In this document: positions 1-38,102 of the stretch, piece by piece
Layout: every line of letters starts with the position of its first letter
Position numbering within the stretch: position 1 is the stretch's first letter
From: a virus
Lineage: Duplodnaviria; Heunggongvirae; Uroviricota; Caudoviricetes
DNA length: 64,000 bases
Reading direction: 5' to 3' (one strand)
IMG/VR virus record: IMGVR_UViG_3300021387_000308
Coordinates: 38,037-102,036 of that record
Program-made: the position numbers and the translations under genes
Notes under the pieces: generated by a model
Database searches by the model: none
What the model saw: only the letters and a program-made list of their open reading frames with translations
What the model was told of the DNA's origin: nothing

Positions 1-2964
1 GATTTTGAGGATTATAATGAACAGATAAGCGAGATAAAAAACCGTGTTCCTCTTGATGATTTAAAAACAGATTATGGAACATTTTCTATGGAAGAACTAA
101 AGACGGCATTAACAACATATAAAAATCTTTTAGCTACACTCTCTTCTCTCTATAAAGAAGATTATGGGGATATTGGTTTAAATCAAGATGGAAGTATAAA
201 AGAATCTTATATAAAAACAACGGAATATTGGTATGATTATGAAGCTTATCTTTATACCATAAAAGAAATTGAATTTGCTATAAAAGTTTTCCCATATTAT
301 AAAGATCATACTCAATGGAGTTCTGGGGATTCCGATTTATATAAGTCTGAAATTAACGCTTGGGAAACCGAATGGTCATTATACGGAACTATTGAATTAG
401 ACGCGAAAATAAAAGATTATCATAATCGTATGGATTCACTTGCACAAAAAGGTGTTATTAGGATAAATGAAACTGGCTATGAAATAAAAAAGTGGTCAAA
501 ATTAAAACCTGATGGGACTAGCGAATATGAATGGGATGAATTAAGTTCCAATGAAAAGCGCGAGTACTTGAGTCCAGATGAAAAGCGCGAATATAGTGGA
601 ATAGATGGTAATTATAAATATGATGAATATATGGAATACTATAATTATGCAAATGAAGCATAGTAGTATTTAGATTCATTAAATACATAGATTAAATCGC
701 TGGAAACATTACGTGATAGCGCAAATGCCGAGAGATTACAAATTACAAAAGACGTTACTGTTGATAATTATTTTTCTGATAGTGATTTAAAAGTTATTTA
801 TAGATTATATCATGATGCGACATATTCAAACGAGAATATATTAATAACAAGTATAGATGATGTGAATGACAGATTTTCTCATATGAAAGAATTACTTGAT
901 GATGCAAAAGATCAAATATCTATTATTTCAAGACCTCAACTCACATTTTCTGTTGATTGTGATAATCTTCTTGCTATGCCAGAATTTAAATCATTTTGGG
1001 ATAAATTTGTTCCGGGAAATTATATATATGTTTAGTATAAAGATAATGTATATGTAAAATTAAGATTAATAGGTTACTCATTTAATCCACTACTTCCCTC
1101 TTCTTCTACTCTTTAGATTTAGTTTAGCAATTATATAAGATCTAGATCTTACTATAGAGATTGGGATAGTTTACTTGGTAATAATTCTAGTAGTGGCGTA
1201 AGTCAATATAGTTCTGGCGGTGGAGGTGGTGGCAACGATGGTACATATGGTGAATCTGATGATATAGATATTACTATAAGCAACACAATGCTTGCAAAGC
1301 TATTAAATACAGAATTATTTGGTACAAGAGTAACTGATGTAATCCTTGATACTGTTGATGCAAATGCAATTACTGCGCGGTCTGCAACTTTTGGTAGTCT
1401 TGCAAATGGTACTACCGTTGTTGATGGGAAATGTATTACAACTGGTTGGATTGTGGATAAAGATTATAATGGCTCCAATGGATCTATTACTAATACTGCT
1501 GGTTCTATTTTAAATTTGGAATCTGGCTTGTTTAATTTTGCTGGTGGTAATTTAAAATGGGATGGAGATAAATTATTAGTATCTGGAGATATTTATGCTA
1601 ATAGCCTTACACTTGGAAATAATGTTAATATCTCTTATGATAATATATCAAATCGTCCTGATGTTGTAATAAAAGATATTCCAATAAATGGAACTCCATC
1701 TAGCACTCAATAGGGTTTTTTGGTATCAAATAGTGGATTGTTAACTGCTAGTAATGCTATTATTTGGGGAACAATACATGCTACCGATGGTGATTTCGCT
1801 GGGACTATAACAGCTAAATCTGGACATATTGGATATAAAGATACTTCCAATCCAGGTTGGGTAATTAAAACTGGTGCTATATATTCTGGTACAAGTGCAT
1901 TAACTGGAACTGGTTCTACTACTGCTGGTACATATATTGGTACTGATGGTATTTTGAATTATAAAGATTCTAATGCTTATGTAAAAATAACGCAAGGAAA
2001 AATAACTGCCAATAGTGCTGATATTACTGGATCTATTAAAGCTACAGATATAACTGCTAAAAATACATATTACATTAATAATTCATCTGGTACAAAAAAA
2101 ATAGCATTGAATGCTCCAGAAGCGAGTTTTGGCAATGCATTAAATATAGGTGATGGGTTTACAGGAACTCATATAAATGGATAGGTATTTACTGGTAATG
2201 ATCTTTGGGTTGGTGAAGATGGTGGTGCTAATTTATTTTGTGGTGAAATTTCATCTAATGATGTTTGTTATATAAGAAAGAGTTCGGTAGACTCAGATGG
2301 AGATAATATATCAATTAGATGTTCATATGAAAAGACTGGAACAGGTTATAAAGGAAGCGGTATTTATAATGAAACAAAAAATGATTGGATAATTACCCAA
2401 TTTCAATTTCCTGAAACATATACTACAGGTTCATATGAATATTAGGCTGGAGATGTGTATATTCCACATCCATTATGGACAAGAACATTATGTACAAATA
2501 ATGCAAGTGCTACTCTTGGGACAAGTTATTATAAGTGGAAAACTTTATATATTTCTGATTCTGCAATTCATACTTCTGACAGAAAGTTGAAAGATGAAAT
2601 ATCCGATATTTCGTTTGCTACAGATTTAATTATGTCTCTTAATCCGATAACCTTCATGTGGAAAGATGGTGATCATAGAAGAAAACGTATGGGGTTCATT
2701 GCTCAAGACGTGGCATAGGTTTGTAACGATATTGGTGAAAATTTATCATTAGTAACCGCATCATATAAAAATAAACAAGATAATAAAAATGAATATTTTG
2801 GAGAAAATGTAGATGATGAAATTCTTAATTGGGGATTATCTTATGAGTAGCTAATAGCACCAACGATAAAAGTTGTGCAAGATCTTTATAATCAAATACA
2901 ACAACTCAACAAAGAGATTCAATTTCTCAAAAATCAAATATCTGATTTAAAGTCAACCAGATGA
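1..2964 (+). CDS. tail fibre / tail spike protein, 5'-partial, C-terminal S74-type intramolecular chaperone domain; translated with TAG=Gln
   Basis: Frame 1 is open from nt 1 to TGA 2962-2964 when 11 in-frame TAGs (661,664,685,1033,1114,1120,1711,2182,2443,2716,2848) are read as sense. Track ORFs 88..663, 1288..1713, 1720..2184, 2455..2718 are all frame 1. C-terminus has ...TSDRKLKDEI...FMWKDGDHRRKRMGFIAQDVA... plus a coiled coil NQIQQLNKEIQFLKNQISDLK, typical of self-cleaving fibre chaperone modules. Confidence 0.7.
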
Positions 2965-2989
2965 AATCACTATTTTATCGTAGTTTTTT

Positions 2990-3038
2990 ACACAATATGT
3001 TGTGTTTTAAAATATATTGACCACAATATGTAGTGGTC
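2990..3038 (+). promoter_or_regulatory. two adjacent hairpins sharing the core cacaatatgt; the first (ACACAA-tatg-TTGTGT + tttaaaa) is terminator-like for the upstream fibre gene, the second (GACCAC-aatatgta-GTGGTC) is a possible operator/late promoter element
   Basis: Inverted repeats read directly from the sequence at 2990-3005 and 3019-3038; 10-nt core repeated at 2991 and 3022. Confidence 0.35.
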
Positions 3039-3114: not shown

Positions 3115-3618
3115 ATGAAGAAGGAATTATTTTTAATTGAAGCGATCAATATTACAAGTTTTTATGAAAATATGCCAGAGGAAAAGAAGAACGCTCTTCC
3201 ACTTAAAGTGTATTATGGACTTAAAAAGGTTGTGAGTAAACTTCAGCCTGATGTGCGTCAGTTTGAAGAGGTTCGTGATGAAGAGGTAAAAAAGATCCGC
3301 GACATCTACTTCTCTGAAGAAAAGAGCGAAGAAACTGCTATTCCAAAAACTGATGAAAATGGCGAACCTGTACTGGATGAAAATGGAAATCAGTTAACAG
3401 ATACTGGTCGCAAGGTTAAAGATGAATATGTAGACGAATACAAAATTGCAATGGATACGCTGAATGAAAAACTTCAGGAAATCGCAATGGAAAAGAATAC
3501 TTACGAATATAACTGGGTGGATATTGGAGAAATGGTTGAGAATCTTCCAGATGATACACCACTCACAAGAGGAGACATTGATATATTAGATGCAATATTC
3601 GATGAAACTGCTAACTGA
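3115..3618 (+). CDS. hypothetical acidic protein (167 aa), no in-frame TAG
   Basis: Track ORF. RBS aaaaggag 8 nt upstream of ATG. TGA stop followed by a terminator hairpin. Confidence 0.6.
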   Translation: MKKELFLIEAINITSFYENMPEEKKNALPLKVYYGLKKVVSKLQPDVRQFEEVRDEEVKKIRDIYFSEEKSEETAIPKTDENGEPVLDENGNQLTDTGRKVKDEYVDEYKIAMDTLNEKLQEIAMEKNTYEYNWVDIGEMVENLPDDTPLTRGDIDILDAIFDETAN

Positions 3619-3665: not shown

Positions 3666-6600
3666 ATGGATATTAATGTTAACTTATCTCATCAAACAAT
3701 GAGGGTTGCAACAGATCTAAAGAAGTTAGTCGCTGGCTCATAGAAATTCATCCGTTTCGTTTTTAAACTACCGAGTGAATGGGATGATTTTGATGTTATA
3801 ACAGTTTAGTTTATATAGAATGGTTTGGCAAAATATGATTAGCTTGATGAAAACCATGCTGTATATCTCCCATCAGATCTTGAGCCTGGAGATTTTCTAT
3901 TGTTAATTTACGGCTCAAAAAATAACGGAGAAATTCGAGGGACTGTAAATGCATTACAACTCACTCTTACTCCTGATCAATATATTCCTAGTGCTACTGA
4001 AGTATCTCTTACCGAGAATATGTATGATCAGCTAATAAAAATGGTTACAACCATTGGAAGTGAGCCTGTTACAAGTAGTGATATACGTGGATGGGTTTAT
4101 GATGATTCGGTTGCTATTCTTAGGCAATTTCTCGACAATGGAGATTTAACTGGTTTAACTATTCCAGATAAAACAATTGAAAAACATCATCTCAACGATG
4201 AACTTCAAGCATCCATAGACCGAGCAGATTCTGCACTTCAATATATCCCGGATGGATCAGTAACAAGGTCAAAGGTTGATTCAGAAATTGAAGGACTTTT
4301 TAATACTCTTGAAAACCTCGAAATGACTATCCCAGAAGGTTCTATTGATAAAAGTAAAGTGAATTCTGATTTTGCTGCTACTTTAGATAGGGCAGATTCT
4401 GCCATGCAACCATCTGTCTATGATGTTAATAATCGTGCAACAGATATTTTTAATTATGCTGATAGTAAAGTAGAACCAGTTCAGGCTTTAGCATCAAGTA
4501 TGAGACAGGAAATGTCTAGTGCTTACACTGTTGATGAAACATCTTATGATAGTCTTGGTGCTGCTATTAATGGTGCGCTCACTCAGGCAAGAACTTATGC
4601 TAAATCATATACGGATGTAACTCTTGGTAATTATGTTCCATATAGTGTAGCTATTACTGCTACTCTTCCACCGATTAATCTTGGGCAAGATAGGACTTTC
4701 TATCTCGTACCAAAAGCTTCTGGTAATGGATATGATAAATGGTGGGTTGTTGAAAATCTCGACCATACTAAAGTGTGGGATAATTGGGGCGGTTCTTCTA
4801 CATTAATTGTCACTGAGTTGCCACAGGAAGGTGATGTTGATGTAGATTATATTTTAGCCCAAAATGGAGATTATAAATATTATAAATATATTGATAATGA
4901 ATGGAAAATGATTGCCGGGACTAATAATGTATTTTTAGGTATTGAAGGGCAACATTTTATTATTGGAATTGGTGAGCCTGATAATGATTTGATTACTCAT
5001 GATAATTATGCTGCCACTTTAGGATATATAGATATATCTTCGGAGAACTTGAATTGCTATTTTGCAAATGTAGTTTCTTATGAACCTGATTTTGAATATG
5101 AATGGGATGAACCACATGAATTAGTTGAATTCCCATCCGTTGATAAAGATTATTATGTTTTAGATAATAATATGAATTATGTCCATTTAAAATATAATGG
5201 AGGTCAATTTAATATTGTAGGTTCTTGTACATTTGTAGTAAACAAATTACCGACTGTTGGAATTAGCAATGTAGATTATTTATTATTTAAAGACGGAGAA
5301 TATCAGTATTATAAATATATTAATGATAGTTGGAAAATGATTTCTGGCGGGAGTGCAGATGTAATAGTAAATGAACATTCGATTGATTATTATACTCTTC
5401 CACCATTTACTGATCAAGATTTATCAAAATATATTAATAAGTATTATTTAGATGTAAGTAATTTAAAACTTTATACTGTTGTTCAAAGTAATGATGAATA
5501 TCAATGGCAAGAAACTGTTCTTGTTAGTAACCCAAGTGATAGCAAGGATTATTATATACAATTTGGGAATAATAATCTTCTTCATTTTAGATTTGTTGAT
5601 AATGTATTTATACCTGTTGGTTTTACTCAAACTGAAATTGATTCGATTATTAATCCGCTCAATACTAGGATAAATACATTAACAAATAGAATAGATGGAT
5701 ATGATACTTAGATTACTCAAAATCAAAGCAATATAGCTTCTTTAAATAATACAGTTTCATCTCTTCAGCAAGCTGTTAGTGAGATTGATACAGAGGGTTA
5801 TGAATATTTTGCAGACTATGGGACATATGAAGTTGCTGGGCAAGAAACAGATAATGTTTATAGGCTTCGTAAAGTAAAAGGCAGCGAAGAAGAAGTTGTA
5901 AGTTAGTTTGTGATTCAAGGCGGCGGAGGTGGACAGCAAACTTCTACTAACCTTGTTGTTGAAAGAATTACCTAGTCACCATTAATTGTAACTCCAAATG
6001 ATAATGTGATTCTTGAATTTAGGTATTCTTCTGTAACTAATGATAATCAAAAGGAAGAAATTGATGGTAACTATACATTAAAACTTGGCAATACTGTTAT
6101 TGCAAGTGGTGAATGTATTCAAGGAATAAATTCAATCGATGTAACATCATATTGTACTATAGGTACACAAAGGTTTAGTTTAAATGTTGTTGACCTTGGT
6201 GGTAGTAGTGCCGTTAGAACATTTACTGTGTAGAAGGTAGATGTTCGTATTGAATCTGAATACAATGATAGATATTATAATGAGATTGGGAAATCAGCCC
6301 AATTTACATATACTCCATATGGTGCAATAAATAAGACTATTCATTTTAGTTTGAATGGTGAAGAAGAGACTATTACTACTGCTGCTTCTGGTATATTGCA
6401 ATCATATGCTATTCCAGCCCAGCCACACGGTTCATATTTACTTGATGTATGGGTTACTGCGACTGTTAATGGAACTGATATTGAAACAAATCATATTTAT
6501 AAAGATATAATGTGGTATGATCCAAATATGGATGGACAAGGTAATTATAAATCTCCTGTTATCGGATGTAATTATAGATATGACCATCGTGGAGCGGTAA

Positions 6601-9600
6601 GCGTAAGACAATACGATACTCTTCCAATTGTTTATAATGTTTATGACCCAACAACGAATTATCCAATTGTGCGAAGATATATTGATAATGTACTTGTTGG
6701 TACAGATACCATGGAAACAACTCAGAATACATGGAACTTCAAATCTGACATTGTTGGTGAACATAATCTACGAATTGAATGTAGAGATACCGTTGTTATA
6801 ATTGTTGTAAATGTTACAGAACTTGGTATTGATGTTTCTCCAATTACTGGTGGTCTAGAACTTGATTTCAATCCTGTTGGTATCACTAATAGTTCAGAAA
6901 ATAGAATTTGGTCGAATGATAATTATCATATGACAGTTTCCCAGAATTTTGACTGGGCAAACGGTGGATATAAAACAGATGAAAATGGTAATTCTTATTT
7001 CTTAATAAAAGCTGGAACTACTGCGTCATTTGATTATACTATGTTCTCTGGAGGAGTTGATAATAATCCATCAAGAACTGGTTCTGAAATGAAAATTATA
7101 TTTATGACGGAAAATGTTCAAGATGCTGATGCTGTTTGGTTTAGTAATGTTGAAACAAGAAGCTAGACAGTCGATGAAACAACTGTTACTGTAAATATGG
7201 GTATTCAAATGTCTGCTCATAATGGATGGTTAAAAACAAATAAGGCTAGTGATGTTGATGTATCTGATGGAAGTTCTGATACTGTTGCTGCTACGAATAC
7301 GTATTTGTATATGCCATACAGTGAAGAAGATATTATTGAAATGGATATCAATATAGACACGATTGATCTTGAAAATGAAACTTCTACCGCTTTTGTAATG
7401 TCATATGAAGATGGTGTTCCGTCAAAAGCATATGTATATGATAGAAGTGATAGATTTTATCAGTATGACCCTCAGCCAATCACGATTGGTTCTACTTACT
7501 GTGATGTAAGAATTTATAGATTAAAAATCTATTCTACTTCTTTAACATCAGAGGGTATTATGAGAAACTTTATTGCTGATTCTATGGATTCTACTACTAT
7601 GCTTGCTAGATATGATAGAAACAGTATTTATTATAATCAAGAAACTGGGGAATACTCTCCATATAATACAAATGGTATTTTGAGTCCTGAAAGATTAGCT
7701 CCAATAGTTCCTAATGTAAAGATATTGATGTTGGAAACTGATCATTTTACTACCAGCAAAAAGACATTTGTTAAATCCAATTTAAGATGTATTCATGCTC
7801 CAGGCGGCGATGTTTATCCTGGCGATGAATATTATGATAACTGGTATTTTGAAAATGGATGGCATTCTGGTCAAGGTACTACATCTGACAACTATGGTAA
7901 CTCTGGTAGAAACGTTGACTTTTTGTTTAACTGTGATGGTGTCCATAAACCAAGTGATAAGATAAAAGATCCAGAACCAGATTATATTTCAAAAGTTACT
8001 CTTGGTTATAATACTGAAAATGCATACACTGAAACGGTTACGGACTGGAAGGGTGATTCTGGTAAAATTAGTCTTACAAGGACTTCGATACCAAATAATT
8101 TCTTTAATTTAAAAGTTAATATAGCTTCTAGTGAAAATGCAAACAATGCATTGATGCAAAAGAGGTATACGGATTTCTTACCTTATATTTCTCCAGCAAA
8201 ACGAAGAGATCCTAGGATAAAAAATGATATGGAATTTGTTCCAGCAATTTTATTTATTAAAGAAACAAATCCTGATCTTAGTACTCATAATGAATTCCAA
8301 GATAATGAATGGCATTTCTATGCCCTTGGTAATCTTGGAGATTCTAAGAAAACTGACTATACACGTTCATATGACCCAGAAGATATGAATGAATTTACTA
8401 TAGAAATATCTGATAATACTAAAAATAATGCAACATTCCAAACTGGTGTTTATCAGAAACAAGATGGCTCTTATGGATATGAAACATTCCATCTGATTAA
8501 AACACTTGATAAAGAGGGAGAACTTGTTGTTACTCCAGTATCTGAAGTTTCTATATCTGAGCATATATCTCCTGTTCCTTATGACCAAATTGATGCACTT
8601 TTGTTCTAGCAAGGTACTATTCATGTTATTAATGAAACTGGATTAGCAGAGCATGATGGTGATGAATATGGATATTTAAACATGAGAATCTGGTGTCTTT
8701 ATAATGAGGGATTTGATGGAGATCACTCCTTCGAACCTAGATATGCTTGTTGTGGTGATTATAGAGATGGTAAATTAGTAAATGATTATTCTGGATATGG
8801 TAAATAGCAGGTAAAAACGAATGAAAAGGTTTGGAGAGCATTCTACAAGTGGGTTATCACTTCTACTAATGAATAGTTTGTACAAGAACTTGATCAGTGG
8901 TGCGTAAGAAGTGCTGTAGAATTTTTCTATGCATTCACTTTATATTATACCATGATGGATAATAGAGCAAAGAATACTTTCTGGCATTTTGCAAAGACTG
9001 GTGTTTATAGAGAAGTATCCAGACCTGTTGAAGAATTACTCCATATTTATTGTGAATTAGTAGATGAAGAATATGTTCCAACTGAAGACACTTCAATTGA
9101 TCCAGAAAAAACATATTATACATAGTATGCATTTGATTTATGGTGCTATGATACTGATACTGGTCTTGGAATTAATAATAATGGTGAACTTATTTTCCCA
9201 TATGGTAAAGAAGATACTGATTATAATATTGATGGTGATCCATCTTCTGGTTGGGTATTTAACGGAGCTACTTCTGTATTCTGGTGCAGATTGAGAGATT
9301 TATTATCAAATGAAATAACAGAGACATTTAACAGTGTTTCAGCGGAGTGTTTTAATGCTACTAATCTGATAAATCAATTTGATAAATTCCAAGGATGCTA
9401 TCCAGAAGAAATATGGAGACTTGATGTAGAAAGAAAATATGTAAGGACATATACTGGAAAATCTGTTGATAATTCTATTCCTAAACATGATACTCAGTAT
9501 CTTAGAGATATGATGCAAGGTAGAAAGAAATATCAGAGAAGACAATGGGTTAGAGATTAGGAAATGTATTTTGGAACAAAATATCTTATGAATACTGTTG

Positions 9601-12353
9601 TTGGTGACAATAACCGTATTACATTTAGGTGTTATGACCCAGGTAATGATGTTGTTGTTCCTAAGAATTATTCTCTTAGTATTACACCATTCCAAGATAT
9701 GTATGTATCTGCGATGTTTGGTAATGGTGATCAACGACAAGTTAGGGCAAAAGCTGGAGAAACAGTTGTTCTGAATTTCAGTGTTAGTACAACTACTGAT
9801 ACTTAGGTAACTATTTATGGTGCTAATAGAATTGCGGCACTTAATGATTTATCCGCATGTTATATTGCTGCAAATAACTTCTCAATGGCTACAAAGCTGA
9901 GAAAACTTGTTCTTGGTAATACTACTCCCGGATATTCAAATTCAAGGTTAACTTCTTTAACTCTTGGTTCAAATAAATTGTTAGAAGAACTTGATTTGAG
10001 AAATTGTAATAACTTAACTGGTACGCTTAATTTGGCAGATTGTAGTAATCTTCTTAAATTGTACGCAGATGGTACTAGGATTAGTAGTGTTACTTTTGCC
10101 ACTAATGGTAAAGTATAGATTGCTCATCTTCCACCAACATTAAACACATTGGTAATGAGGAATCTTAATGACCTCCAAGATTTTTAGTGCTCAATGGATT
10201 ATCTTGAATAGTTAACTTTACAAGGAGGCACATTAAATAGTTATGAAGTTATTTCTGATGTAATTGATACTCTTAGTGTAGTATATTTATATGATTTAGA
10301 TTGGACGGTACCGAATTCTGATATTCTTAATCAATTATTAAATCTTGAATATTCTACATTGACTGGTAAAGTATATATTAATGGTGCTACAAGACTTAAG
10401 GAACTTGAAAGATACAATGCAAAATGGGCTGATCTTACTGTCACGTATAATCCTAACTATCTTGTAGAACAATATGCAGTTACTTATGTTAATGATGATG
10501 GTACTACTCTTGGAGTATATTATGTAGACCGTGGTGCCGTCCCGCCAAATCCAGTCGAAGATGGTACAATGGAAACTCCGACAAAAGCAAGTGATGCTCA
10601 ATATACTTACACATTTAGTGGTTGGGATGATATTGAATCTGTAGTACTTGCACCAAGAACTATTAAAGCACAATATTCAGAAACAATTAGAACATATACT
10701 GTAACTTGGTATTCTCGTGAAGGTGTTCCAATTCGTAGCACATAGGCTGAATATGGTTCTGAAGTAGTATACGATGGTAATATTCCAACTCGTACTGATG
10801 AAGAAGCTGCATATTGGTATAATATATTTACTGGATGGGACAAATCTACTGGATATATTACTGGTGATACTGATGTCTATGCTATTTGGGATAGAAAAGT
10901 ATTACCTGTTACTAATAATAACACATTGTTGACGAAAGACCTTAATGATATGAGTCCCGCAGAAATCTATGCTCTTGGTAATGCTTAGGCTATTGATTTG
11001 TCAAATATTACAAATCTGGAAGTGAAAGATTATAAAGATATTGTGGTTGGTAATGATTTTAATTTTAATAATGTAGAATCTGAAGTTCTTCTTGAGAATC
11101 GTTGGTTTGATGGTAAAACACATGTTGATACAAACATTAAATTGTTTAGTGAAGATTCGGAAGATTTTACTCTTGCTATTGATTTTGAATTTTATCAGCC
11201 GACATCAAATGCTACTCTCGTATCTTGCTTCGAAGAAGATGGTTCAGAAGGTTTCAGATTAAGATATAATCAAGGTTCTTCTATTCAGTGGGGTGATAAG
11301 AGTGTAACTGCTGGGCCAGACAGACAACGTAGTATTTGTGTAATCCGACACTTAAAAGGTTCTGATAAATTATATACTTATGTCTATAATACTAACAGTT
11401 ATCAATATGATGATGCTGTAATTAGAACAGAATTAACTAGGACAAGATCTACTACTACTGATTCGGTACTTAGTTTTGGTGCTATCAAATTCCCAGATGG
11501 TGGTTATGATTTCTACGCAAAAGGCTGGATTCACTGGTGTAAGATTTGGTATGCAGATTTAGGTAATGCCAATGCTTTGGAACTTGCACAATGGCCTCAT
11601 GAAACGTGGAGAGCAGAATACACTGGTTTGCAGAATTATAGATTGCCAGGTACTAGTAGATATGCTAGATTATCATTCTCATTAAATAACCTTCTTCTTA
11701 ATGAAATGGTTATGGCATATAGTAGTTCAAATGCTGGTGGTTGGCCCGCTAGTAAGATGAGAGTATGGGAGAATGATAGAATTTATAAAGCATTGCCAGT
11801 ATCTTATAGGGCAATTCTTAAACAAGTAAGAGTATGTTCTAGTGCTGGTAGTATGTCATCCGAAATAGTATATTCTGATGATTATATTTATGCTCCATCA
11901 TTAATAGAAGTTAGTGGCAATTCTTAGATTCCTTATGGAGATGAAATTCAGTCTAGTGGAAGTAACAAGATGATTCCTTGGTATACTAGTGATATTTCTA
12001 GGATTAAGTTCCTTGGTCAATTTGCACCAAGTAATCCAAATACTTTCTATAGTACTGAAGACCCGACAATTAATGATTCTAATAATGTTACTGCTGGAGA
12101 TATTTGGTATAGAAATTCATATGGTACTTACTATATGTTCATACCAAAATCCGAATATGATCGTCATGAGTATAAAGGTGATAATATTGTAGCTTCTAAT
12201 GGTGGCTTATGGTATCAGAGTGCTTATTGGTTTACTAGAACACCAGATGTATCATATAATGAATACTTTAGAGGTGTTGGTAACAGCGGTAATACCTATA
12301 CAATGCTTTGGCCTAATTCTGCTTATGGTGTCAATATTAATTTCTCAGTATAA
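3666..12353 (+). CDS. giant virion fibre/adhesin-like structural protein, 2895 codons, about 21 TAG(Gln) codons
   Basis: ATG 3666 with RBS gaaagga. Frame 3 contains no TAA/TGA from 3666 to TAA 12351-12353 (codon walk checked across the gaps). Track ORFs 3900..5711, 6006..6233, 6351..7166, 7197..8609, 9291..9560, 9564..9806, 9885..10118, 10359..10745, 10998..11927, 11970..12353 are all frame 3 and each ends at TAG. Internal duplicated motif [18 protein letters not shown] / [18 protein letters not shown]. Confidence 0.65.
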
Positions 12354-22382: not shown

Positions 22383-22384
22383 TT

Positions 22385-24675: not shown

Positions 24676-24736
24676 AATTTTAAGGAGAGCTAGATCACTC
24701 TCCTGTGTAAGAAAGGAAGGTGATTTATAATAAATT

Positions 24737-28142: not shown

Positions 28143-28367
28143 ATGAAGAATATTAAAACTTCAAATGTTGTATTAATTGTAATAGCTATTGTATTAATTG
28201 TATTTACTACTGTATGTTTATATTTATTTGCAAAGATAGGCTCGGTTCCTGATTCACTTATTGGAGCCGTATTCGGTTCAGCATTGGGTGAGATGGGCTT
28301 TATGTCCTGGATACGTAACACAAAACAAAAGTATCGTGATGACGCACCACTTGAAGAGGAGGAATGA
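28143..28367 (+). CDS. holin-like small membrane protein (74 aa, TM VVLIVIAIVLIVFTTVCLYLFA, charged C-terminus)
   Basis: Track ORF. Stop overlaps the next start (ATGA). Confidence 0.55.
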   Translation: MKNIKTSNVVLIVIAIVLIVFTTVCLYLFAKIGSVPDSLIGAVFGSALGEMGFMSWIRNTKQKYRDDAPLEEEE

Positions 28368-28786
28368 TTATGACTGCTGCTACGTGGAATGATATTATGA
28401 GTGCTTGTATTCCGATTTTATGTCTGTTGATTACTGCTGGTGGAGCATATCTTGTTGCCCTGTTGAAGCGTGAAACAATGAAAATCGAAAAACAACTTGA
28501 TAACGAAATGATTAGTAAATATATTGAAATGGCAAATGATGCTGTCACTTAGGCAACTCTATATACTACTTAGGTATATGTTGAAACTCTGAAGAAACAA
28601 GGTGGATTTACTAAAGAAAAACAGATTGAAGCATTTAATATGAGTAAGCAAAAAGCTCTCGAAATTCTTGGTGACACTGCTATTAAAGCGCTGAATGAAA
28701 TTTATGGCGATCTAGATTCGTGGCTGAATACTAAGATCGAACAGGTTGTTTTTGAATCTAAAAATACTGTTGTAAAGGCAGAGTGA
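28364..28786 (+). CDS. membrane protein (140 aa; N-terminal TM then soluble helical domain), antiholin/spanin-like; 2 TAG(Gln)
   Basis: Track ORF 28364..28552 continues in frame 2 through TAGs 28550 and 28571 to TGA 28784-28786. Confidence 0.5.
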
Positions 28787-28790
28787 TTGT

Positions 28791-29210
28791 GTGAGTAAAT
28801 CGATTTTTAAATTTTTAGTATTATTTACATTCTTTGGAACTATCTATACTATTATAGAAACGATATTTAAATATCCTCGCTCTTCTCACTGGTCAATGTT
28901 TATCGTTGGTGGATTGATGGGATATTTTGTTGGGCTATTAAATAATGTAATCCCTTGGGAAATGTCGCTTATCTTATAGGCAATACTTGGCGGAATTGTT
29001 ATTACTATCACCGAGGGAATAGCTGGTATAATCCTTAATATTTGGCTAGGTTTAAATGTCTGGCATTATTCCTACATGACTTTCTTCTTTGGCTAGTGTA
29101 GTGTGCCATTTTGTATAGCATGGATATTTCTAGCACTAGTTGCAATAGTATTAGATGATTTCTTAAGATACTTTTTATTTGATGAGGAATGGCCTCATTA
29201 TAGATTATAA
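28791..29210 (+). CDS. 4-TM small membrane protein (139 aa); 2 TAG(Gln)
   Basis: GTG 28791 (track). Frame 3 through TAGs 28977 and 29094 to TAA 29208-29210 (end checked). Confidence 0.5.
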
Positions 29211-29268: not shown

Positions 29269-29616
29269 GTGCTAACAATTCAGAAAACCAATATCTCTCT
29301 AACCCGTGGAGACTCTGCATATATTACTATGGTTATCTTTGATGGTTCTGGTAAGAAGCTTGAATTAACGAGTAATGACAAGGTACGATGCCAAGTAAGA
29401 GATGAGCCTGATACTGGTAACTTATTATTCGAGGGTCGAATTTTGAAATAGGATGATGACTATTTATGGTATATCAGACCAGAAGATACTATAGAACTTG
29501 ATACTGGTGATTATTATTGGGATGCACAAGTTGAATTCTCAAATGGAGATATTTTTTCATTTATTCCTGTTTCGAAATTTAAATTAATTAGTGAAGTAAC
29601 AATGGAGGAGGAATAA
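29269..29616 (+). CDS. hypothetical late protein (115 aa), 1 TAG(Gln)
   Basis: RBS aaaggagg then GTG 29269. Frame 1 through TAG 29449 to TAA 29614-29616. Confidence 0.5.
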
Positions 29617-29617
29617 T

Positions 29618-29947
29618 ATGGGTGCGAGTATACGTTAGAGCGGAAAGATTATAGCAAGTCTGTCCGATGCAAAACAAATCCGTGGTACTCTTATGGAAAC
29701 ATTCCTAAAGGGTGATCCTGGTGCATAGATACAATTACAGATTGCAAATGATTCTATCCTTCAATGGAAATATGATAATGAAACTGAATGGCATGATTTA
29801 TTTGATTTGTCAACTATAGATTATGAATTATTAACCAATCTCCCAACGCTCAATGGTAATGCGTTAGTTGGAGAATTGAATGATTTATTTATGTTACCAT
29901 CAGATGAGGTAACAGAATAGGAATTAATGAATTTATTAAATAATTAA
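29618..29947 (+). CDS. hypothetical late protein (109 aa), 3 TAG(Gln); paralog of the C-terminus of the 14345 gene
   Basis: ATG 29618 overlaps the upstream TAA. Frame 2 walk to TAA 29945-29947 checked. Shared motif ILQWKYDNETEWHDLFDL. Confidence 0.5.
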
Positions 29948-29963
29948 AGAAAGGAGGGAACAA

Positions 29964-31688
29964 ATGAAACCAAAATTTATTTCGTTGGAAAGATTTGCGA
30001 CATTTATAACGTGGTTAAAAGATGCTCTCCTCGGTAAAGTAGATAAAGAAGATGGTAAAGGATTGAGTGCCAACGATTTTACTGATTAGGATAAAAGTAA
30101 ATTAGATAATATCGAATCTGGTGCTCAAGTTAATTTAATTGAATCAATAAGTATTAATGGCGATGCGCAGACCATTAATCAGAAAAACGTGGATATTACT
30201 GTTCCTCTTGTTGATGACACTCTCACACATTCTGGGCAATCTGCTGATGCAAAAGTTACTGGTGATGCAATAGCTGATGTAGTAGCTGATGTAAATGCGG
30301 AACTTGCTACTAAACAGGACACTCTCTCGTTCGCAACTCCTACAGCCGAAGATGTTGGTAAAGCATTGATGCCTAAAACGGTAGAGAATGGTGTTGTTAC
30401 AGCTTGGGAATTTGGAGAAGCTGGATTGGTTGATGATGTCCAAATTAATGGCACGAGTATCGTGTAGGATAAGGTGGCGAATATACCACTGGCTAAGGAT
30501 GGTGTTGTTGGTGCAGTAAAAGTAGTTCCTATATTTGGTATAGCAACAGCTAACGATGGAACATTGTTAATAAACAATTCAACGTCAGATGTTGTAAAAT
30601 TAGGTGACAATAGTAATAGACCAATAACTCCAAATTATCAACATGAATCAACTTTCTATGGTCTTGCCAAAGTTGCGGGACACGATGAGAAGGATTCTAC
30701 ATTGCCTGTTGGTCAATACACCGATTCTGCAAAATCCGCCATTCAATCAATGTTAGGAATTGATACTGCTATCGCTGATGCTGTTGGTGATATAACCAGT
30801 TTTGAGTTTTAGGTTGTTGATGAGCTTCCAGCTACTGGGACTAAGGGTATTATTTATCTAATCCCACATCCACATGATGATAATGATGGATATGATGAAT
30901 ATATCTGGATTGATGATGGATTTGAGAAACTTGGGCATACTGATATTGATTTGAGTAATTATGCCACTATTAATTATGTTGATAGTGCATTGGATAATAA
31001 AATTGATGATGTTCAAATAGATGGGACAAGTATTGTAACTAATGGTGTAGCTGAAATACCTATTGCTAATATCAATACATTTGGAGTTCAAAAAGTAAAT
31101 GGGGCATATGGTATTGCGTCATCAGTTAATGGGACAACTTTATCCATAAATAGATCAACCACAGATAATGTAAAAAAGGGGAAAGAAACTTATAAACCTA
31201 TTGTTCCATCAAATCAACATGAAGCAGTATTCTACGGGTTAACAAAAGCTGCGGGAGTCGATATGGCTAATTCTGCTAATGAAATCGGTCAATACACGAA
31301 TGATGCAAAATTAGCAATCAAATCAATGCTTGGATTTGCTACATCTTCTGATATATCAGCGGCTATAGATAATCTTGTTAGTACTAGATATTATGTATGT
31401 TAGGATGGCGAATATGATCCATCAACTCACATTCCCACACTTGACGGTGAATTGGGAATTATTTATTTGGTACCGAAATATACTGAGCAATCAATAATCG
31501 GTTTTGCTACTATTGGAACTGCTATCGTTGTCACAGCAGATGATAATGCATATTATGAATATATCTTTACTGGAAGTAAGTTCGAGAAAATTGGTGATAC
31601 TAAAATTGATTTAAGTGATTATCTGATGGATTCTGATATAGCAACCGATGATTCTGTGAATACAATGTTGAATTAGGTATTTGTATAA
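29964..31688 (+). CDS. fibre protein (574 aa) with an internal duplicated module (...NGTSIV...PNYQHE..FYGL.K.AG...GQYT..AK.AI.SMLG...); 6 TAG(Gln)
   Basis: RBS aaaggaggg then ATG 29964. Track ORFs 30189..30467, 30474..30812, 30951..31403, 31452..31676 are all frame 3. TAA 31686-31688. Confidence 0.65.
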
Positions 31689-31701
31689 AAGGAGGAATAA
31701 C

Positions 31702-32418
31702 ATGAGTTATGTGAAAAATGTTTGGAGTGATGGAGATGTTATCACTGCAAATAAGATGAACAATATTGAAAATGGTATAGCTACGTTGCAAACCGACATG
31801 GGTAATATAACTGCTGAACCTATGATATCTATTACATGGGCAGAACTTAAGGCTAAACGTGATGACGGAAACCTTACGCCAGGTATGCAGTATCGCATTA
31901 CCGACTATGTTTGCACTACAACGCAGGAAGAAACTAGAGCAGTTAGTCATCCTTACGACATTATCGTAACAGCTGATAGTGCTAATACGCTTAACGAAAG
32001 CGCTATGGCTTGCTTGCATGATGGCGATGACTATTACACCGCCGAAGATCATTCCGCTAATCTTAAGGCTTGGGAACTTAAGTACTGTCTGGATAATGAT
32101 ACGACTAGATTTGCCTGGGCAGATGAGACAAACGGTAAGGGCGTTGTCTACTATCTTAAGGATGAGAAAGGTAACGAATGCCCTTACGATTTCAAACAGA
32201 TCCAGTTTAAGAGATACCTTATTACAGAATGCGAGAAAGTTCCTAGCTTGGTTAGCACCGCTGCTACGGCACTAATAGATTCTGCTATCATCACCGGGAT
32301 AGATGAAGATAACCCGGCTTGGTGCTATACGTTTACTAAATTTACAGGACCTGGCACAGTAGAAGATGCAACAGTATTAGGGTCACAGCATGAAGATAGC
32401 GACGGAGGTGGATATTAA
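31702..32418 (+). CDS. fibre module X (238 aa), no TAG; its core recurs fused inside the next gene
   Basis: RBS aaaaggagg then ATG 31702 (the track's 31681 start is an upstream TTG). TAA overlaps the next ATG (TAATGA). Confidence 0.6.
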   Translation: MSYVKNVWSDGDVITANKMNNIENGIATLQTDMGNITAEPMISITWAELKAKRDDGNLTPGMQYRITDYVCTTTQEETRAVSHPYDIIVTADSANTLNESAMACLHDGDDYYTAEDHSANLKAWELKYCLDNDTTRFAWADETNGKGVVYYLKDEKGNECPYDFKQIQFKRYLITECEKVPSLVSTAATALIDSAIITGIDEDNPAWCYTFTKFTGPGTVEDATVLGSQHEDSDGGGY

Positions 32419-34592
32419 TGAATGTACTTGGAAATAAAATAGCATATGCATCCTATCAAGATCAACAGATTCTTAATAATATAGTTTTTTTGGTAGTAAA
32501 CATTGGATGCTCTAATAACACCTTTGGTAATAACTGCTCTAAAAACACCTTTGGCGATGGCTGCTCTGAAAACACCTTTGGAAATGACTGCCGGAACAAC
32601 AACTTTGGCGATAACTGCAAGAACAACACCTTTGGTAATAGCTGCTACGACAACGTCTTTGACATCAACTGCTCTGAAAACACCTTTGGCAATGACTGCT
32701 ACAGCAACGCCTTTGTCAATAGCTGCTCTAAAAACACTTTTGACGATAATTGCACCGGCAACGCATTTGGCCGTGCATGCCTTGGCAACACCTTTGACAA
32801 TAGCTGCCAGGACAACACCTTTGGCGATAACTGCAAGAACAACACCTTTGGTAATAGCTGCGAAAATAACACCTTTGGCATTAGCTGCCAGAGCAATGCA
32901 TTTGGCGATAATTGCACCGGCAACGCATTTGGCGATAACTGCCAGAACAACACCTTTGGCAATGATTGCGCCGACAACACCTTTGGCGATAACTGCCAGA
33001 ACAACACCTTTGGCAATAGCTGTTATAGCAATACCTTTGATCATTGCTACGCTAATGTCTTAGAATTCAATTGCGGTTATCTTAAAGGCATGTATGACGA
33101 AACCGAAGGCACAACGGCACATTCATATCATGTGCTGCAATCAACTCATGGTACATCTGTTGAAGAATTATATGAACTCCCGACTAAGCCAGATACAGTT
33201 CTATCAGTCACTTACGTTGGAATGGACAGTAGCGGAAATATTACAACGTGGATCCTTGCCGAAGTTAACAATGGTGGTAGCGGTGGATCAGCTACACCAA
33301 TGGAATCCATTACATGGTCTGAACTTAAAGTAAAACGTGATGGTGGAACTCTTACACCTGGCATGTAGTATCGAATCACAGACTATGTCTGTACCACTAC
33401 GTAGGCAGAGTCTAGAGCTGTCAGCCATCCTTATGATATTATTGTGACAGCTGATAAAGTTAATGTGCTCAACGAAAATGCTAGGGCTTGTCTTCACGAT
33501 GGTGATGACTATTACACTGCTGAGGGACATTCTGCTAATTTAGCTGTTTGGGAGCTTAAGTACTGCCTGGATAACGACGAAACTAGGTTTGGATGGGCAG
33601 ACACCGAAAACGGTAAGGGCGTTGTTTACTATCTTAAGGATGAACATAATAACGAGTGTCCTTACGATTTTAAGCAGATTCAGTTTAAACGGTATAGGAT
33701 TACTGAATGCGAGAAAGTTCCTAGCATTGTTGGAGCCTATACGGCACCAATAGAATCTACTGTTATCACCGGAATAGATGAAAATAACCCAGTTTGGGGC
33801 TACACATTTTGTTATTATGGAAATAATCTAGACGATGCAACGGTATTAGATGCACAGCATTATTTAGATGACTGCGGAGTATTTGGAAATAAAATAGCGC
33901 CGGCGTACAATGGCGATCTAATGGTTCTTAATAATATAGTTTTTATAACTATCACCGACGGCTGCTACGGTAACACCTTTGACGAAGGGTGCGGTTACAA
34001 TACCTTTAGCATTACATGTTGTAACAACGCATTTGGCTATAACTGTCATAGCAACATCTTTAATGCTGGTTGCACCAGAAACGCATTCAACAATTCTTGT
34101 GTCGGGAATATTTTTAGTACTAGGTTCAAAGAAAATACTTTTGGCAATGAATGCCATGATAACATCTTTGGCAATGAATGCCATGATAACATCTTTGGTA
34201 ATGACTGCCATGATAACATCTTTGGTAATGACTGCTCTAACAACATATTCGGTAATAACAGTTATAGTAACACATTTAGTAATAACTGCTATAATAACAC
34301 CTTGGGCAATTCCTGCCCGTTCAATTCCTTTGGTAGCAATTGCCATAATAATATTTTAGAAAACACATGCGGTTATCTTAAAGGTACATATGATGAAACC
34401 AACGGCACATCAACACATTCGTGTCATGCATTAGCCGGAACTAGAGGACTGCCTGATCGATTATATGAGCTTCCGACTAACCTAGATTCAAATAAATCAG
34501 TCACTTACGTTGGGATGAAAAGCAACGGAAATATTATAACGTGGGTGCCGGCCGATGTTCATGATGATCCAGATGAGGGTGGGCTACGGTGA
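32418..34592 (+). CDS. beta-helix-type fibre protein (724 aa): 9-residue repeat array - tail - copy of module X - second repeat array - tail; 2 TAG(Gln)
   Basis: Track ORFs 32418..33368 and 33444..34592 are both frame 3 and joined through TAG 33366 and TAG 33402. Both TAGs align to CAG codons (31888, 31924) in the upstream paralog. Confidence 0.7.
32508..33057 (+). repeat. about 20 tandem 27-nt coding repeats (peptide C-x-x-N-T-F-G-x-x)
   Basis: Periodic NTFGDNC / NTFGNSC units in the translated ORF. The same units on the antisense strand create spurious ORFs. Confidence 0.7.
33963..34371 (+). repeat. second array of about 15 27-nt coding repeats (C-H-D-N-I-F-G-N-E type)
   Basis: Same 9-residue periodicity in the second half of the gene. 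Confidence 0.65.
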
Positions 34593-34738
34593 TGATTCTT
34601 TTGAGGATTAAATTATGGGAGTAACTTATAATCGTGGTGTCAGCTGATACTATACCACATAGAATTTATAAAAAATAATACTATTGAGTGATAATTATGT
34701 AATTAAAATTATTAAACATGAAATGAGGTGATGAAATA

Positions 34739-34972
34739 ATGGCAATTACGACATTAGACCAACTCAAGACATCTCTTTAGGCAACTAAAGTTTATATAGA
34801 TAATACTATTAATAGTGCAACTTAGAGAGGTACCTATACTCTCACTGCCACTGATAAAGAAGAAATTGCTGGAATGGTTTTACCAATATTACCATCAGTT
34901 GATGGTTCATATATATTAACAGTAACTATTAGTAATGGCAATCCTACATATGCGTGGCAATTACAAAGTTGA
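34739..34972 (+). CDS. hypothetical small late protein (77 aa), 2 TAG(Gln)
   Basis: RBS gaggtg then ATG 34739. Frame 2 walk to TGA 34970-34972 checked. Confidence 0.45.
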
Positions 34973-35250: not shown

Positions 35251-36933
35251 GTGAAAATTATGTCCGTAACAATAAATAATTTGGCTAAAAAAGCATGGAA
35301 GGTTTTTCTAAAAGAAGGGATGACAAAACAAGGAGCAGCTGGAATGCTGGGTAATATTTTTGCAGAAAGTGGAATGAATGCTTCTATTGTTGAATACCTA
35401 TGTCTTCAACGGCTTAGAGAAAATGGCAAAAATTATACTCAAGAATCATATAGATAGGCTGTTGACAATGGTAAAATTACGAGAGCAGAATTTTTAAATC
35501 CATTGCCAGGCAAATAGTATGGTTGGGGATGGACTTAGTTAACAACTCCTGTTCCACGAAAATCAGAGTTCTATGATAGAACAGTTGCCGTTGGTAAATC
35601 AATAGCTGATGAAGATGAGCAAATTAATTACACTATTTATGAACTTAAAACAAGATATAAAAGTGTGTGGAAAGTACTTACAACCACAACTTCTATTAAA
35701 ACTGCTTCTGATACTGTATTGAGAGATTTTGAATCACCAAGTAATTGGTAGCAATATAGTTCATTGAGAATGCAGTATTCTTAGGAGTATTATGATTATT
35801 TTAATAATCAAGCTACAGGCACGAAAGGAAGTGATGTTGTGTCAGTAACTAGAGAACAAGCAATTAATGCGATGATATCTACCGCAGAAGCTGAGATCGG
35901 ATATCTTGAGAAAGCTAGTAATTCTTAGCTTGATTCTAAGACGGCTAATGCTGGTAGTAATAACTATACTAAATATTGGAGAGATGTATATCCCGCATAT
36001 CAAGCCCAAGCGTGGTGCGCTTGTTTCGTATCTTGGGTGTTTATGAAAACATTTGGATAGGAAACTGCCAAAAAGCTTCTTAAACACTGGCCTTATGTTT
36101 ACTGCCCAACTATGGCATCATTGTTTACGCTTAATGCTAATCCGAAGAAAGGTGATATTGTAATCTTTTATCGCAATGGCACATTTGCTCATACTGGGAT
36201 TGTTGTTGGTGTAAATGGAGATTAGTTTACTACTATTGAGGGTAATACCTCGAATGGTTCTACTATTATTGCAAATGGTGGCGGAGTATGCAAAAAGAGT
36301 TATTACAACTCAAATCTGCCAGGTACTAAATTCTGTACTCCAGATTACTCAATAGTAACCAAGATTCTCTCTGGTAATACTACTATCAATACTACTACAA
36401 CCACTACTTCTACTACCACTACTACAACTACCTCTTCTACTTTGAATGAAACTCCAAAGTGGAAAGGTAAATTAAATCGTAATGCAAAAGTTCGTACTTG
36501 GGCTGGATCAGAAAATAAAGAAGTATCGTTTTCTCCACTCAAGAAAAATATCCAAGTAGAAGTGTGTGATACTGTTAAAGATACAAAGAATCGTAATTGG
36601 TATTATATCAAAGTAAATGATAAATTTGGTTTTATATATAGTAAATATATAGATAAAGTTGTTGCTAATACAACTAAACCAACTAAAACTACAACCGCCA
36701 AAACCACTACTACGCAATATCGTGTTCAAGCTGGAGCATACTCGGTACTTGCCAATGCAAATGCTACTGTAAAGACTCTGACCAAATCTGGGTATGATGC
36801 TGTGGTAGTCAAGAGCGGAAATAGTTATATTGCATAGCTTGGAATGTTTGGTTCACTAGCTAATGCAAATGCACTTAGAGATAAAGTTAAATCTGACGGT
36901 TTCGATGCCGTTGTTATTGCTATAAAATCATGA
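35251..36933 (+). CDS. multidomain peptidoglycan hydrolase (560 aa): N-terminal lysozyme-like domain (AAGMLGNIFAESG), CHAP/NlpC-P60 domain (AWCACFVSW ... HTGIVVGV), SH3b-like domain, C-terminal SPOR domain; about 9 TAG(Gln)
   Basis: GTG 35251 or ATG 35260. Frame 1 continuous through track ORFs 35251..35457 and 36442..36837 to TGA 36931-36933. Cys and His catalytic motifs of CHAP recognised; SPOR motif YRVQAGAYSVLANANATVKTL. Confidence 0.65.
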
Positions 36934-36950
36934 TGAGGAGATAAAAAGGA

Positions 36951-38102
36951 ATGAACGTTTATTTAGATAATGCTGCAACTACACAGATGTTGCCAGAAGT
37001 AATTGATGCTATGAAGTCATATATGATTGAATACTATGGAAATCCATCTGGATTATATACGATTGGATTTAAAACAAAAAATATGCTTGATGATTGTCGC
37101 AAAACTATTGCACAGACTATCAATGTATAGCCTAACCAGATTTATTTCACATCTGGTGGAACTGAGGGAGATAATTGGATTATTAAAGGTGTTGCTGAAG
37201 CGCTGGAAACAAGAGGTCATCATATTATTACTTCTTCTATTGAACACAAAGCAATTCTTAAATCTTGTGAATGGCTTGAAGATCATGGATTTGAAGTAAC
37301 ATATATTGACCCAGATGATCGCGGTTTTATCCATGTATCTGATATTGAAAGTGCCATCCGTGAAGATACTATTCTTGTTAGCATTATGTATGCTAATAAT
37401 GAAGTTGGTACTATACAGCCAATTGAAGAGATTGCTAAAGTATGTAAAAATTATCATGTGTTGTTCCATACAGATGCAGTTCAAGCATATGGTCATGTTC
37501 CAATCAACGCTCGGAAATTTGGTATTGATTTCATGACAACAAGTAGTCACAAATTCCATGGCCCAGACGGTGTAGGATTTGTCTATATTCGTAACCCAAA
37601 AACTATTTCTCAATTTATCCACGGTGGACAACAAGAATCTGGATTCCGCGCTGGAACAGAAAATATGTTGGGTATTGTTGGAATGGCAAAAGCTGCGGAG
37701 ATTGCACATAAAAATCTACAAACTAATATTAATTATATGACATCACTCAGAGATGTGTTTATTGATGAGTGTTTAAATAATATACCAAAGTGTCACCTGA
37801 ACGGTTCTCTCATAAGTAGACTGTGTAATAATATCAGTTTAACATTTGATGGTGTTCCCGGCGAATCTTTGGTAACAATGTTGGATATGATGGGAATAAG
37901 TTGTTCTACTGGAAGTGCTTGTAATTCTTCCGATGAAAAACCATCACATGTTTTAACTGCCATGGGTAGGACTGATGAGTATGCCCATAATACACTCAGA
38001 TTTACTCTTTCTGAGTTGACAACGGCAGATGAGATAGATTATGTTCTTCAATGTTTAAAACGCACTATTTCTGATATTAGGAGGTTATATGGGCAAAAGT
38101 AA
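36951..38102 (+). CDS. class V aminotransferase / cysteine desulfurase (NifS/IscS-like, 383 aa) with 1 TAG(Gln) at 37128
   Basis: RBS aaaaagga then ATG 36951. Frame 3 walk through TAG 37128-37130 to track ORF 37386..38102 checked. PLP-lysine motif SSHKFHGP, active-site Cys motif GSACNS, FTSGGTE motif. Confidence 0.75.

Follow-up and report, generated by a model that had tools for sequence, protein, structure and literature searches.

Borges et al. (bioRxiv 10.1101/2021.08.26.457843) described gut phages in which the amber codon TAG stands for glutamine (Gln; Q), with the recoding concentrated in genes for structure and lysis. In these phages integrases avoid in-frame stops, and there are close relatives that use the standard code. 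A suppressor tRNA could be detected in only 40% of the TAG-recoded genomes, standard-code hosts were predicted, and the recoding was proposed to control when lysis occurs and the switch between the lytic and lysogenic cycles. For crAss-like phages, proteomics has confirmed the reading of TAG as Gln (Peters et al. 2022, PMC9523058), and a survey of recoded jumbo phages from the human gut reported CUA suppressors and intron-bearing tRNAs (PMC13037316). Here we analyze 64,000 nucleotides (nt) of a tailed phage (Caudoviricetes; IMG/VR record IMGVR_UViG_3300021387_000308, positions 38,037 to 102,036), hereafter the window. Its late genes are very probably written in code 15 (TAG = Gln) and its early genes in the standard code, and a phage suppressor tRNA would operate a translational lock. 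The TAG-to-Gln recoding of late and lysis genes is already published; what is new here is the lineage and the scale.

Several features are shared with the code-15 gut phages (crAss-like, Lak, Garnet, Amethyst, Agate and Topaz): TAG is dense in structural and lysis genes and aligns to Gln, the integrase and early genes fit the standard code, the GC content of the window is 34%, a tRNA(CUA) is found in the lineage, and there is a close standard-code relative (related loci are given L numbers; in this case L036, with a portal 87% identical to that of the recoded L024). Unlike those clades, the phage is an SPbeta-like siphophage, probably of Bacillota: the virion genes of relatives match the Pfam families YonB, YonD, YonG, YonJ and YomW, a sign that the lineage is close to SPbeta-like phages. 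Its tape measure is called at 7,650 amino acids (aa), the suppressor of its closest relatives has a long variable arm and, in one relative, a group I intron, all of which also set it apart from the same clades. The temperate recoded phages of Borges et al. (Garnet, Topaz) measure 22-34 kb, whereas contigs related to ours measure 203-206 kb. As in the recoded jumbo phages (PMC13037316) and in phAss-1/'Phassvirus' (PMC10607447), we are dealing with a large gut phage with code 15 in hallmark genes and with tRNA(CUA) suppressors (here in relatives), and tRNA introns have been reported there as well. Only 4.9% of the recoded jumbo phages were predicted to be temperate (PMC13037316), in contrast to the integrase-bearing phage studied here. 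It resembles Bacillus phage SPbeta and SPbeta-like prophages in the five Yon and Yom families, the great length of the tape measure, the presence of an integrase and the large genome size. The code of SPbeta is the standard one, whereas ~29% of the late-gene Gln codons are TAG in the window. Our data thus add a large integrase-bearing SPbeta-like phage, probably of Bacillota, to the recoded phages.

In the structural and lysis module, which occupies the plus strand of positions 1-38102, TAG is a sense codon. The initial annotation of this DNA had reported that the standard code (code 11) shatters the region into dozens of fragments, and our measurements confirm it. Stop-to-stop open reading frames (ORFs) of at least 100 aa cover 0.71 of the region in code 11; the value rises to 0.97 if TAG is read as sense but only to 0.78 if TGA is, and the comparison of coding density that had been proposed therefore favors TAG as sense. 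The longest ORF grows from 1,095 codons in code 11 to 2,900 codons. Gene calling with TAG as sense gave 27 consecutive genes on the plus strand, totaling 12,216 codons and including 107 in-frame TAGs, with no internal TAA or TGA, just as had been claimed for the sequence between the fragments; the TAA/TGA counts in the two other frames of the same DNA are 340/160 and 712/719. The re-read genes had been said to end always at TAA or TGA, and they do so (17 and 10 genes, respectively; none ends at TAG). At least one in-frame TAG is present in 25 of the 27 genes, and only g2 (3115-3618) and g23 (31702-32418) have none, so the description of the entire module as recoded holds for all but these two. 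Late-gene TAGs are distributed along the length of the genes.

The module had also been described as an operon led by ribosome-binding sites (RBS) and punctuated by terminators. Shine-Dalgarno-like cores were found 5' of 23 of 26 late-gene starts (the scan covered those of the full-length TAG-read-through genes), and seven terminator-like hairpins lie in intergenic gaps, at 3617, 13119, 20520, 26694, 29216, 35213 and 38317, which bears out both parts of the description. TAG makes up 107 of the 375 late-gene Gln codons (29%), with the highest shares in g19 (2/2), g13 (56%) and the lysin gene g26 (41%). The nucleotides at +4 and -1 of sense TAGs do not distinguish them from CAA/CAG, and a context-dependent read-through signal is therefore unlikely. 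Recoding extends beyond the left edge of the window, since the next upstream genes, including the tape measure, carry TAGs (26 in the 1,544 codons of the tape-measure C-terminus). The cumulative GC skew reaches its maximum at 38-40 kb, which is the point where gene orientation switches from plus to minus. A standard-code annotation would break up the virion and lysis genes, and gene calling in this phage needs code 15. The components of the late module are the following:

1-2964, plus strand: g1, last 987 aa of a tail-fibre or baseplate protein (1,421 aa in full) that carries a Peptidase_S74 chaperone domain; 11 in-frame TAGs, stop TGA
3115-3618, plus strand: g2, 167 aa, TAG-free; used as the anchor sequence for finding relatives
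3666-12353, plus strand: g3, giant fibre-like protein of 2,895 aa; 21 TAGs, 22 standard-code pieces, stop TAA
12371-16453, plus strand: g4-g9, six small fibre-associated genes; 17 TAGs
16536-20396, plus strand: g10, fibre protein of 1,286 aa; 9 TAGs, 10 pieces, stop TGA
20393-20555, plus strand: intergenic unit between g10 and g12 with a promoter-like site, a degenerate tRNA-like element and a hairpin; overlaps the doubtful ORF g11
20688-26677, plus strand: g12-g15, comprising the paralogous receptor-binding-like proteins g12 and g13, g14, and the S74-domain fibre g15; 19 TAGs
28364-29210, plus strand: g18, holin (by phrog_13712), and g19, membrane protein with multiple transmembrane segments
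29269-34972, plus strand: g20-g25, further fibre-like proteins
35260-36933, plus strand: g26, endolysin with Phage_lysozyme2, CHAP and SPOR domains; 9 TAGs
36951-38102, plus strand: g27, IscS/NifS-type cysteine desulfurase with Aminotran_5 and PDB matches; one TAG, at codon 60

The initial annotation had counted ten frame-3 pieces in g3, a number that has to be corrected to the 22 listed above. Its five pieces in g10 correspond to those of at least 100 aa, and the actual number is 10.

Matches to known protein families continue across the TAGs. In g27, the Aminotran_5 profile (positions 1-371) aligns to residues 3-365 (E=6e-84) and cysteine desulfurases of the PDB align to residues 3-378 (E=8e-99), in both cases through the TAG at codon 60. 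The motifs SSHKFHGP (from residue 198) and GSACNS (from residue 321) were indeed found downstream of that TAG, as previously noticed. The Phage_lysozyme2, CHAP and SPOR domains of g26 each cross TAGs, and the closest of its 3,583 homologs with E-values of at most 1e-10 align over the entire length. Here too the catalytic residues lie where they had been placed: the CHAP cysteine (AWCACFV, at 251) comes after TAGs at 66-223, and the histidine (FAHTGIV, at 309) after an additional TAG at 267. The match of g18 to the holin family phrog_13712 (residues 9-137, E=3e-54) encloses both of its TAGs, and Peptidase_S74 domains were identified in g1 and g15. Since Pfam, PDB and PHROG matches span the TAG breaks, the fragments are not separate genes, and homologs do not stop at these positions. 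The same or 97%-identical sequence is present in independent ENA, Logan and IMG/VR assemblies, indicating that the window sequence is not an assembly artefact.

Comparisons with homologs and relatives indicate that TAG stands for Gln in the late genes. In an alignment of 120 lysin sequences, Q is the most common residue in five of the nine TAG columns, with a tie for first in a sixth; position 93 is Q in 110 of the 120 homologs, and in four homologs taken from NCBI both position 86 and position 93 are Q. Among the 102 lysin homologs with at most 57% identity, Q fills 36% of the TAG-column cells against a background of 3.4% (10.8x), whereas every other residue reaches at most 1.4x and S is depleted (0.56x). 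Additionally, 106 TAG positions from the window and recoded relatives were compared by tblastn with standard-code DNA, represented by MT835469.1, L036, Blautia phage Montmirail and Monoglobales phage CHVD 5762. Q was found at 28% of them (6.7x) and E at 19% (2.7x), with Y at 0.55x, L at 0.67x and S outside the commonest residues. The alignment of TAG positions to homologs, including non-recoded DNA, had been suggested as a check, and it leaves Q as the sole strongly enriched residue.

Codon exchanges between related genomes point to the same amino acid. Alignments to related genomes cover 52 of the window TAG positions, 40 of which keep TAG; relatives that differ have CAA (9), CAG (6) or another codon (5). 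In the reverse situation, with TAG in the relative and a different codon in the window, the window codon is CAA in nine cases, CAG in seven and some other codon in nine. A CAA or CAG partner is therefore involved in 31 of the 45 changes. Replacement of window CAA by TAG is as frequent as its replacement by CAG (nine each), whereas none of 354 TAT, 112 TGG, 107 AAG and 71 GAG codons of the window is replaced by TAG. By this exchange pattern, TAG acts as a third Gln codon in the late genes. Moreover, the two TAGs of g24 fall opposite Q in the alignment to its paralog g23. The original proposal of amber to Gln is thus upheld by the lysin homologs (10.8x), the standard-code DNA (6.7x) and the codon exchanges (31/45).

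The minus-strand early module (38103-64000) shows the opposite use of TAG. Its main components are:

38604-39914, minus strand: tyrosine integrase of 436 aa, no internal TAG; stop TAG, with the next in-frame stop (TAA) 15 codons on
40134-64000, minus strand: early module with an SPFH protein, dUTPase, ribonucleotide reductase and ~60 small ORFs
42647-45898, minus strand: intein-containing ribonucleotide reductase, 1,083 codons without TAG; Ribonuc_red_lgC and TSCPD domains

Including the integrase, 65 minus-strand standard-code ORFs (7,657 codons) cover ~89% of 38103-64000. They end at TAA (34), TGA (23) or TAG (8, or 12%), the integrase being among the TAG-enders. At the late-gene rate, ~67 TAGs would be expected in these genes, but TAG was observed only as the terminal codon of eight ORFs. 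The eight TAGs are located at 75-99% of the length of the read-through ORF (p ~1.5e-5 under uniform positions), and a 97%-identical relative has TAA in place of one of them. TAG thus occupies stop positions in the early and lysogeny genes but is used often as a sense codon in the late genes, so that a single genome is sharply split between TAG as stop in early/lysogeny genes and TAG as Gln in late/lysis genes.

Suppressor tRNA genes were found in relatives of the window. A walk of ~50 kb upstream along a 107-kb IMG/VR relative (g2 93% identical) led to a tRNA cluster (L024:4769-5001) composed of tRNA(CUA), tRNA-Thr and tRNA-Asn, ~1.4 kb before the terminase genes. Its tRNA(CUA) (4769-4841) is a 73-nt class I tRNA that scores 57.5 bits against the Rfam tRNA model. 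In portal-anchored look-ups, a tRNA(CUA) of a second kind was found immediately after the portal gene in L027, L028, L031, L033, L034 and L039. That of L039 (11642-11732; 49.9 bits) lies 55 nt past the portal gene; L039 comes from sample ERZ27291668, which is also the source of L007, a contig 97% identical to the window over 6.3 kb of the fibre region (within positions 1-6.3 kb). The portal-side tRNA(CUA) measures 87-94 nt and has a long variable arm (L039, L028, L027, L031), with a discriminator G at its 3' end in L039, L028 and L031. In L039, genes before the small terminase lack TAG, and from there on 67 TAGs are found in 19 genes, which puts the suppressor tRNA inside the recoded late block. 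By analogy with these relatives, the genome studied here would carry the same tRNA(CUA).

In a 206-kb relative (L030, L032), the portal-side tRNA gene is split within the anticodon by a 296-nt insert (L030:12020-12408), which scores 48.3 bits (E=3e-11; gathering score 50) against the Rfam group I intron model RF00028. Default tRNA scans miss this intron-split tRNA(CUA), and introns in suppressor tRNAs may be one reason why suppressors go undetected in many recoded phages.

The two kinds of tRNA(CUA) are unrelated and occupy two positions, the class I form before the terminase and the form with a long variable arm after the portal. An identical 41-nt core of anticodon and variable arm is common to the tRNA(CUA) genes of L028 and L039, whose acceptor and T arms differ; a search for the exact 40-nt core of the class II suppressor gave a single IMG/VR contig. 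A 'tRNA-Phe(AAA)' call in L039 lies at the Rfam threshold (29.1 bits) and looks degenerate, and we do not accept it.

Based on these data and on the published model, we propose that upon infection or induction host ribosomes would read the integrase and early genes by the standard code, and that late mRNAs would yield no full-length fibre, holin or lysin until the phage amber suppressor tRNA (CUA) accumulates. As the suppressor gene of relatives lies within the late transcription unit, beside the terminase or the portal, the tRNA would be made once late transcription begins. The recoding would then work as a translational lock that makes virion assembly and lysis dependent on the late programme and silences the lytic genes in a lysogen. 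The tRNA is presumably charged with Gln, and the timing and the lock function are those that the published model would predict.

Some of our results weigh against this proposal. ARAGORN and Rfam revealed no tRNA in the window plus 6.9 kb on its left and 9.7 kb on its right, a span of ~80.6 kb of contiguous phage sequence outside of which the terminase/portal region of this genome lies. The search for a tRNA(CUA) that the initial annotation had called for gave a divided answer, with intact genes in seven relatives and none in the window or its 16.6 kb of flanks. The same span holds no release-factor or aminoacyl-tRNA synthetase gene, and the Pfam families of release factor 2 and of aminoacyl-tRNA synthetases are also missing from the gene tables examined, which cover a minor part of the genome; in the published sets of recoded phages such accessory code-change genes are optional. 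The tRNA(CUA) of the closest relative that has one shows a long variable arm and the discriminator G (G73), features that are typical of tRNA-Ser and not of tRNA-Gln. Furthermore, the protein P0001 does not match its DNA under code 11, and the public collection translates TAG as Q. With TAG already translated as Q in some public relatives, part of the Q signal in the 120-sequence lysin alignment is circular; the codon-exchange and standard-code-DNA tests are unaffected by this translation.

It is conceivable, although we find it doubtful, that in the SPbeta-like lineage Gln is inserted at TAG by the atypical tRNA(CUA) of 87-94 nt with its long variable arm and, mostly, G73. Bacterial tRNAs with a long variable arm are those for Ser, Leu and Tyr, the seryl-tRNA synthetase (SerRS) ignores the anticodon, and the glutaminyl-tRNA synthetase (GlnRS) is missing in many Bacillota. 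Since these identity rules predict serylation and GlnRS is often missing, Gln at TAG would need a new charging route or a second suppressor. If the atypical tRNA does serve Gln, an undescribed switch of tRNA identity or charging would be implied, unless a second suppressor exists, and the odd suppressor tRNAs of this lineage are the one part that specialists might follow.

Compared with suppression by a tRNA of the phage itself, read-through in a genome devoid of tRNA(CUA), whether by a host amber suppressor, by weak termination by release factor 1 or by a co-infecting element, is improbable. It would explain the lack of a tRNA in ~80.6 kb of contiguous sequence, and it agrees with the detection of suppressors in just 40% of the TAG-recoded genomes (Borges et al.) and with the suggestion that host or competitor tRNAs are a possible source (PMC13037316). 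However, seven related contigs have an intact tRNA(CUA) at two conserved positions beside packaging genes, L030 and L032 carry the intron-split version that a default scan misses, and the packaging-gene region of this genome lies outside the retrieved sequence. Moreover, the 21 TAGs in the 2,895 codons of g3, and the additional ones in the tape measure, demand efficient decoding.

Somewhat less probable still is that TAG is read as a residue other than Gln, either Ser, Leu or Tyr through the class-II-shaped tRNA(CUA), or pyrrolysine. The 87-94 nt length and the long variable arm of the tRNA(CUA) in L039, L028, L027 and L031, together with the discriminator G in three of them, describe a shape that in bacteria belongs to Ser, Leu or Tyr tRNAs, the first of which are charged by an anticodon-blind SerRS; a few TAG columns of the lysin homologs do match Y, N, L or A. 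Nevertheless, Y and L are at or below background at the TAG columns and S stands at 0.56x in the lysin homologs, against 6.7-10.8x for Q, and TAG exchanges with CAA/CAG 31 times but with TAT twice, TCN three times and TTG once, with none of 354 window TAT codons becoming TAG. The tRNA(CUA) of L024, in addition, belongs to class I. As for pyrrolysine, ARAGORN labels these tRNAs 'Pyl' because of the CUA anticodon only: their normal T-loop and large D-loop or variable regions are unlike tRNA-Pyl, and none of the locus tables examined contains pyl genes, so that this candidate was rejected.

Even smaller is the chance that TAG is never a stop, that is, that the whole genome and perhaps the host read it as Gln and the early genes are TAG-poor by chance. 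A public gene caller did read the entire scaffold with TAG as sense and lengthened early ORFs past their terminal TAGs, and two early ORFs have a second or third TAG in the read-through tail. All eight early TAGs, however, lie within the final 25% of the read-through ORF, in contrast to the spread of late TAGs along the genes; one early TAG is TAA in a close relative, ~67 would be expected at the late-gene rate, and 12% of TAG stops is ordinary for a low-GC genome with the standard code. We know of no bacterium that reads TAG as Gln. Standard-code hosts are, moreover, what Borges et al. predict for TAG-recoded phages. Finally, the view that the fragments between TAGs represent small genes of their own, pseudogenes left in a decaying prophage, or sequencing or assembly artefacts can be practically discarded, for although code 11 does give dozens of ORFs in the region, the frames are interrupted by TAG alone and never by TAA or TGA, single Pfam, PDB and PHROG matches cross the breaks, TAG is retained in relatives at 40 of the 52 covered positions, identical sequence was recovered in independent assemblies, and RBS-like cores lie 5' of the starts of the full-length read-through genes.

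The sequence comparisons also suggest that recoded and standard-code members stand close together in this lineage. L036, whose portal shares 87% identity with the portal of the recoded L024 that served as query, has no in-frame TAG; in this standard-code relative (L036, L037, L038) 15 genes are TAG-free in frame and one gene ends at TAG. Such proximity supports what has been published on the code, namely that it changes between closely related phages and that recoding could lock the lytic genes in a lysogen. A near-identity DNA search with both halves of the window against INPHARED phages revealed no similar record. By protein similarity of the tape measure, the only INPHARED relative is MT835469.1 (176 kb; 24% identity), a standard-code phage that has four ordinary tRNAs but lacks a suppressor.

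The window is identical to part of an ENA scaffold of 118,309 bp (SHIW14-1_SAMN02144230-S009_METAG-scaffold_261). A 108-kb contig (L011) shows 100% identity to the window sequence over 10.5 kb, and a contig of 203,101 bp (L010) shows 97% identity over 8.8 kb. The public gene table of these contigs reads TAG as sense and lists the 2,895-aa g3 and the 7,650-aa tape measure. By coordinate arithmetic, two independent assemblies, the ENA scaffold and NODE_267 (108,091 bp), both end ~38.0 kb to the left of window position 1, which hints at a repeat or at a physical genome end. Given related contigs of up to 203-206 kb, the phage genome is probably larger than 200 kb. With an early protein encoded past the right edge as query, no relative was found in IMG/VR, three further portal look-ups gave no match in the window's own samples, and a GTDB scan with the integrase gave none either.

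Some features give hints about the host. Ribosome-binding sites of the AGGAGG type hint at Bacillota, the CHAP domain of g26 is 72% identical over 171 residues to the endolysin of Blautia phage Montmirail, and a 40%-identical portal occurs in a Lachnospiraceae genome assembly. The window comes from a large SPbeta-like, integrase-bearing tailed phage, for which these data hint at a gut Bacillota host.

Differences in length are pronounced for the tape-measure gene (PhageMin_Tail; L005:1-4634, to the left of the window). In this phage it is called at 7,650 aa; in an IMG/VR relative (L014, L016, L021) it forms a TAG-sense ORF that runs without interruption for ~8,300 codons, and its counterparts in MT835469.1 and L015 are several-fold shorter (2,729 and 4,363 codons, respectively).

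Within the late module, g9 and g10 have in common an N-terminal motif, LKDS-x-A, with a conserved TAG. The paralogs g23 and g24 (within 31702-34592, plus strand) are accompanied by long runs of the short repeat NTFGN-x-C-x-x on both flanks of g24, which suggests a repeat-built receptor-binding protein. The full-length desulfurase g27 closes the lysis cassette directly before the integrase, an odd site for such an auxiliary gene, and the same order of desulfurase and integrase is kept in L004.

The intergenic unit between g10 and g12 begins with an extended -10 promoter-like site at 20393-20421 (TTGATA-17-TGgTACAAT). It is followed at 20480-20552 by a 73-nt degenerate tRNA-like element with a perfect T-arm, GGTTCGACTCC (CACGG-TTCGACT-CCGTG). 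The acceptor-like and T stems of this element form a single 12-bp hairpin before a T-run, and the element may be what is left of a tRNA, now serving as a terminator. We rejected it as a non-canonical suppressor, as it has no CUA, a 6-nt anticodon loop, a 3-bp D-stem and no match to the Rfam tRNA model.

In the early module, the intein of the ribonucleotide reductase holds a LAGLIDADG domain, and in L004 (17431-20781) the same enzyme is split into two ORFs by an HNH endonuclease gene. Among dozens of small early ORFs of unknown function are a Tad4-family protein (Pfam PF25186; L009:8240-8572, ~1.5 kb past the right edge of the window) and a YspA/SLOG-domain protein (PF10686; window 56045-56518, minus strand).

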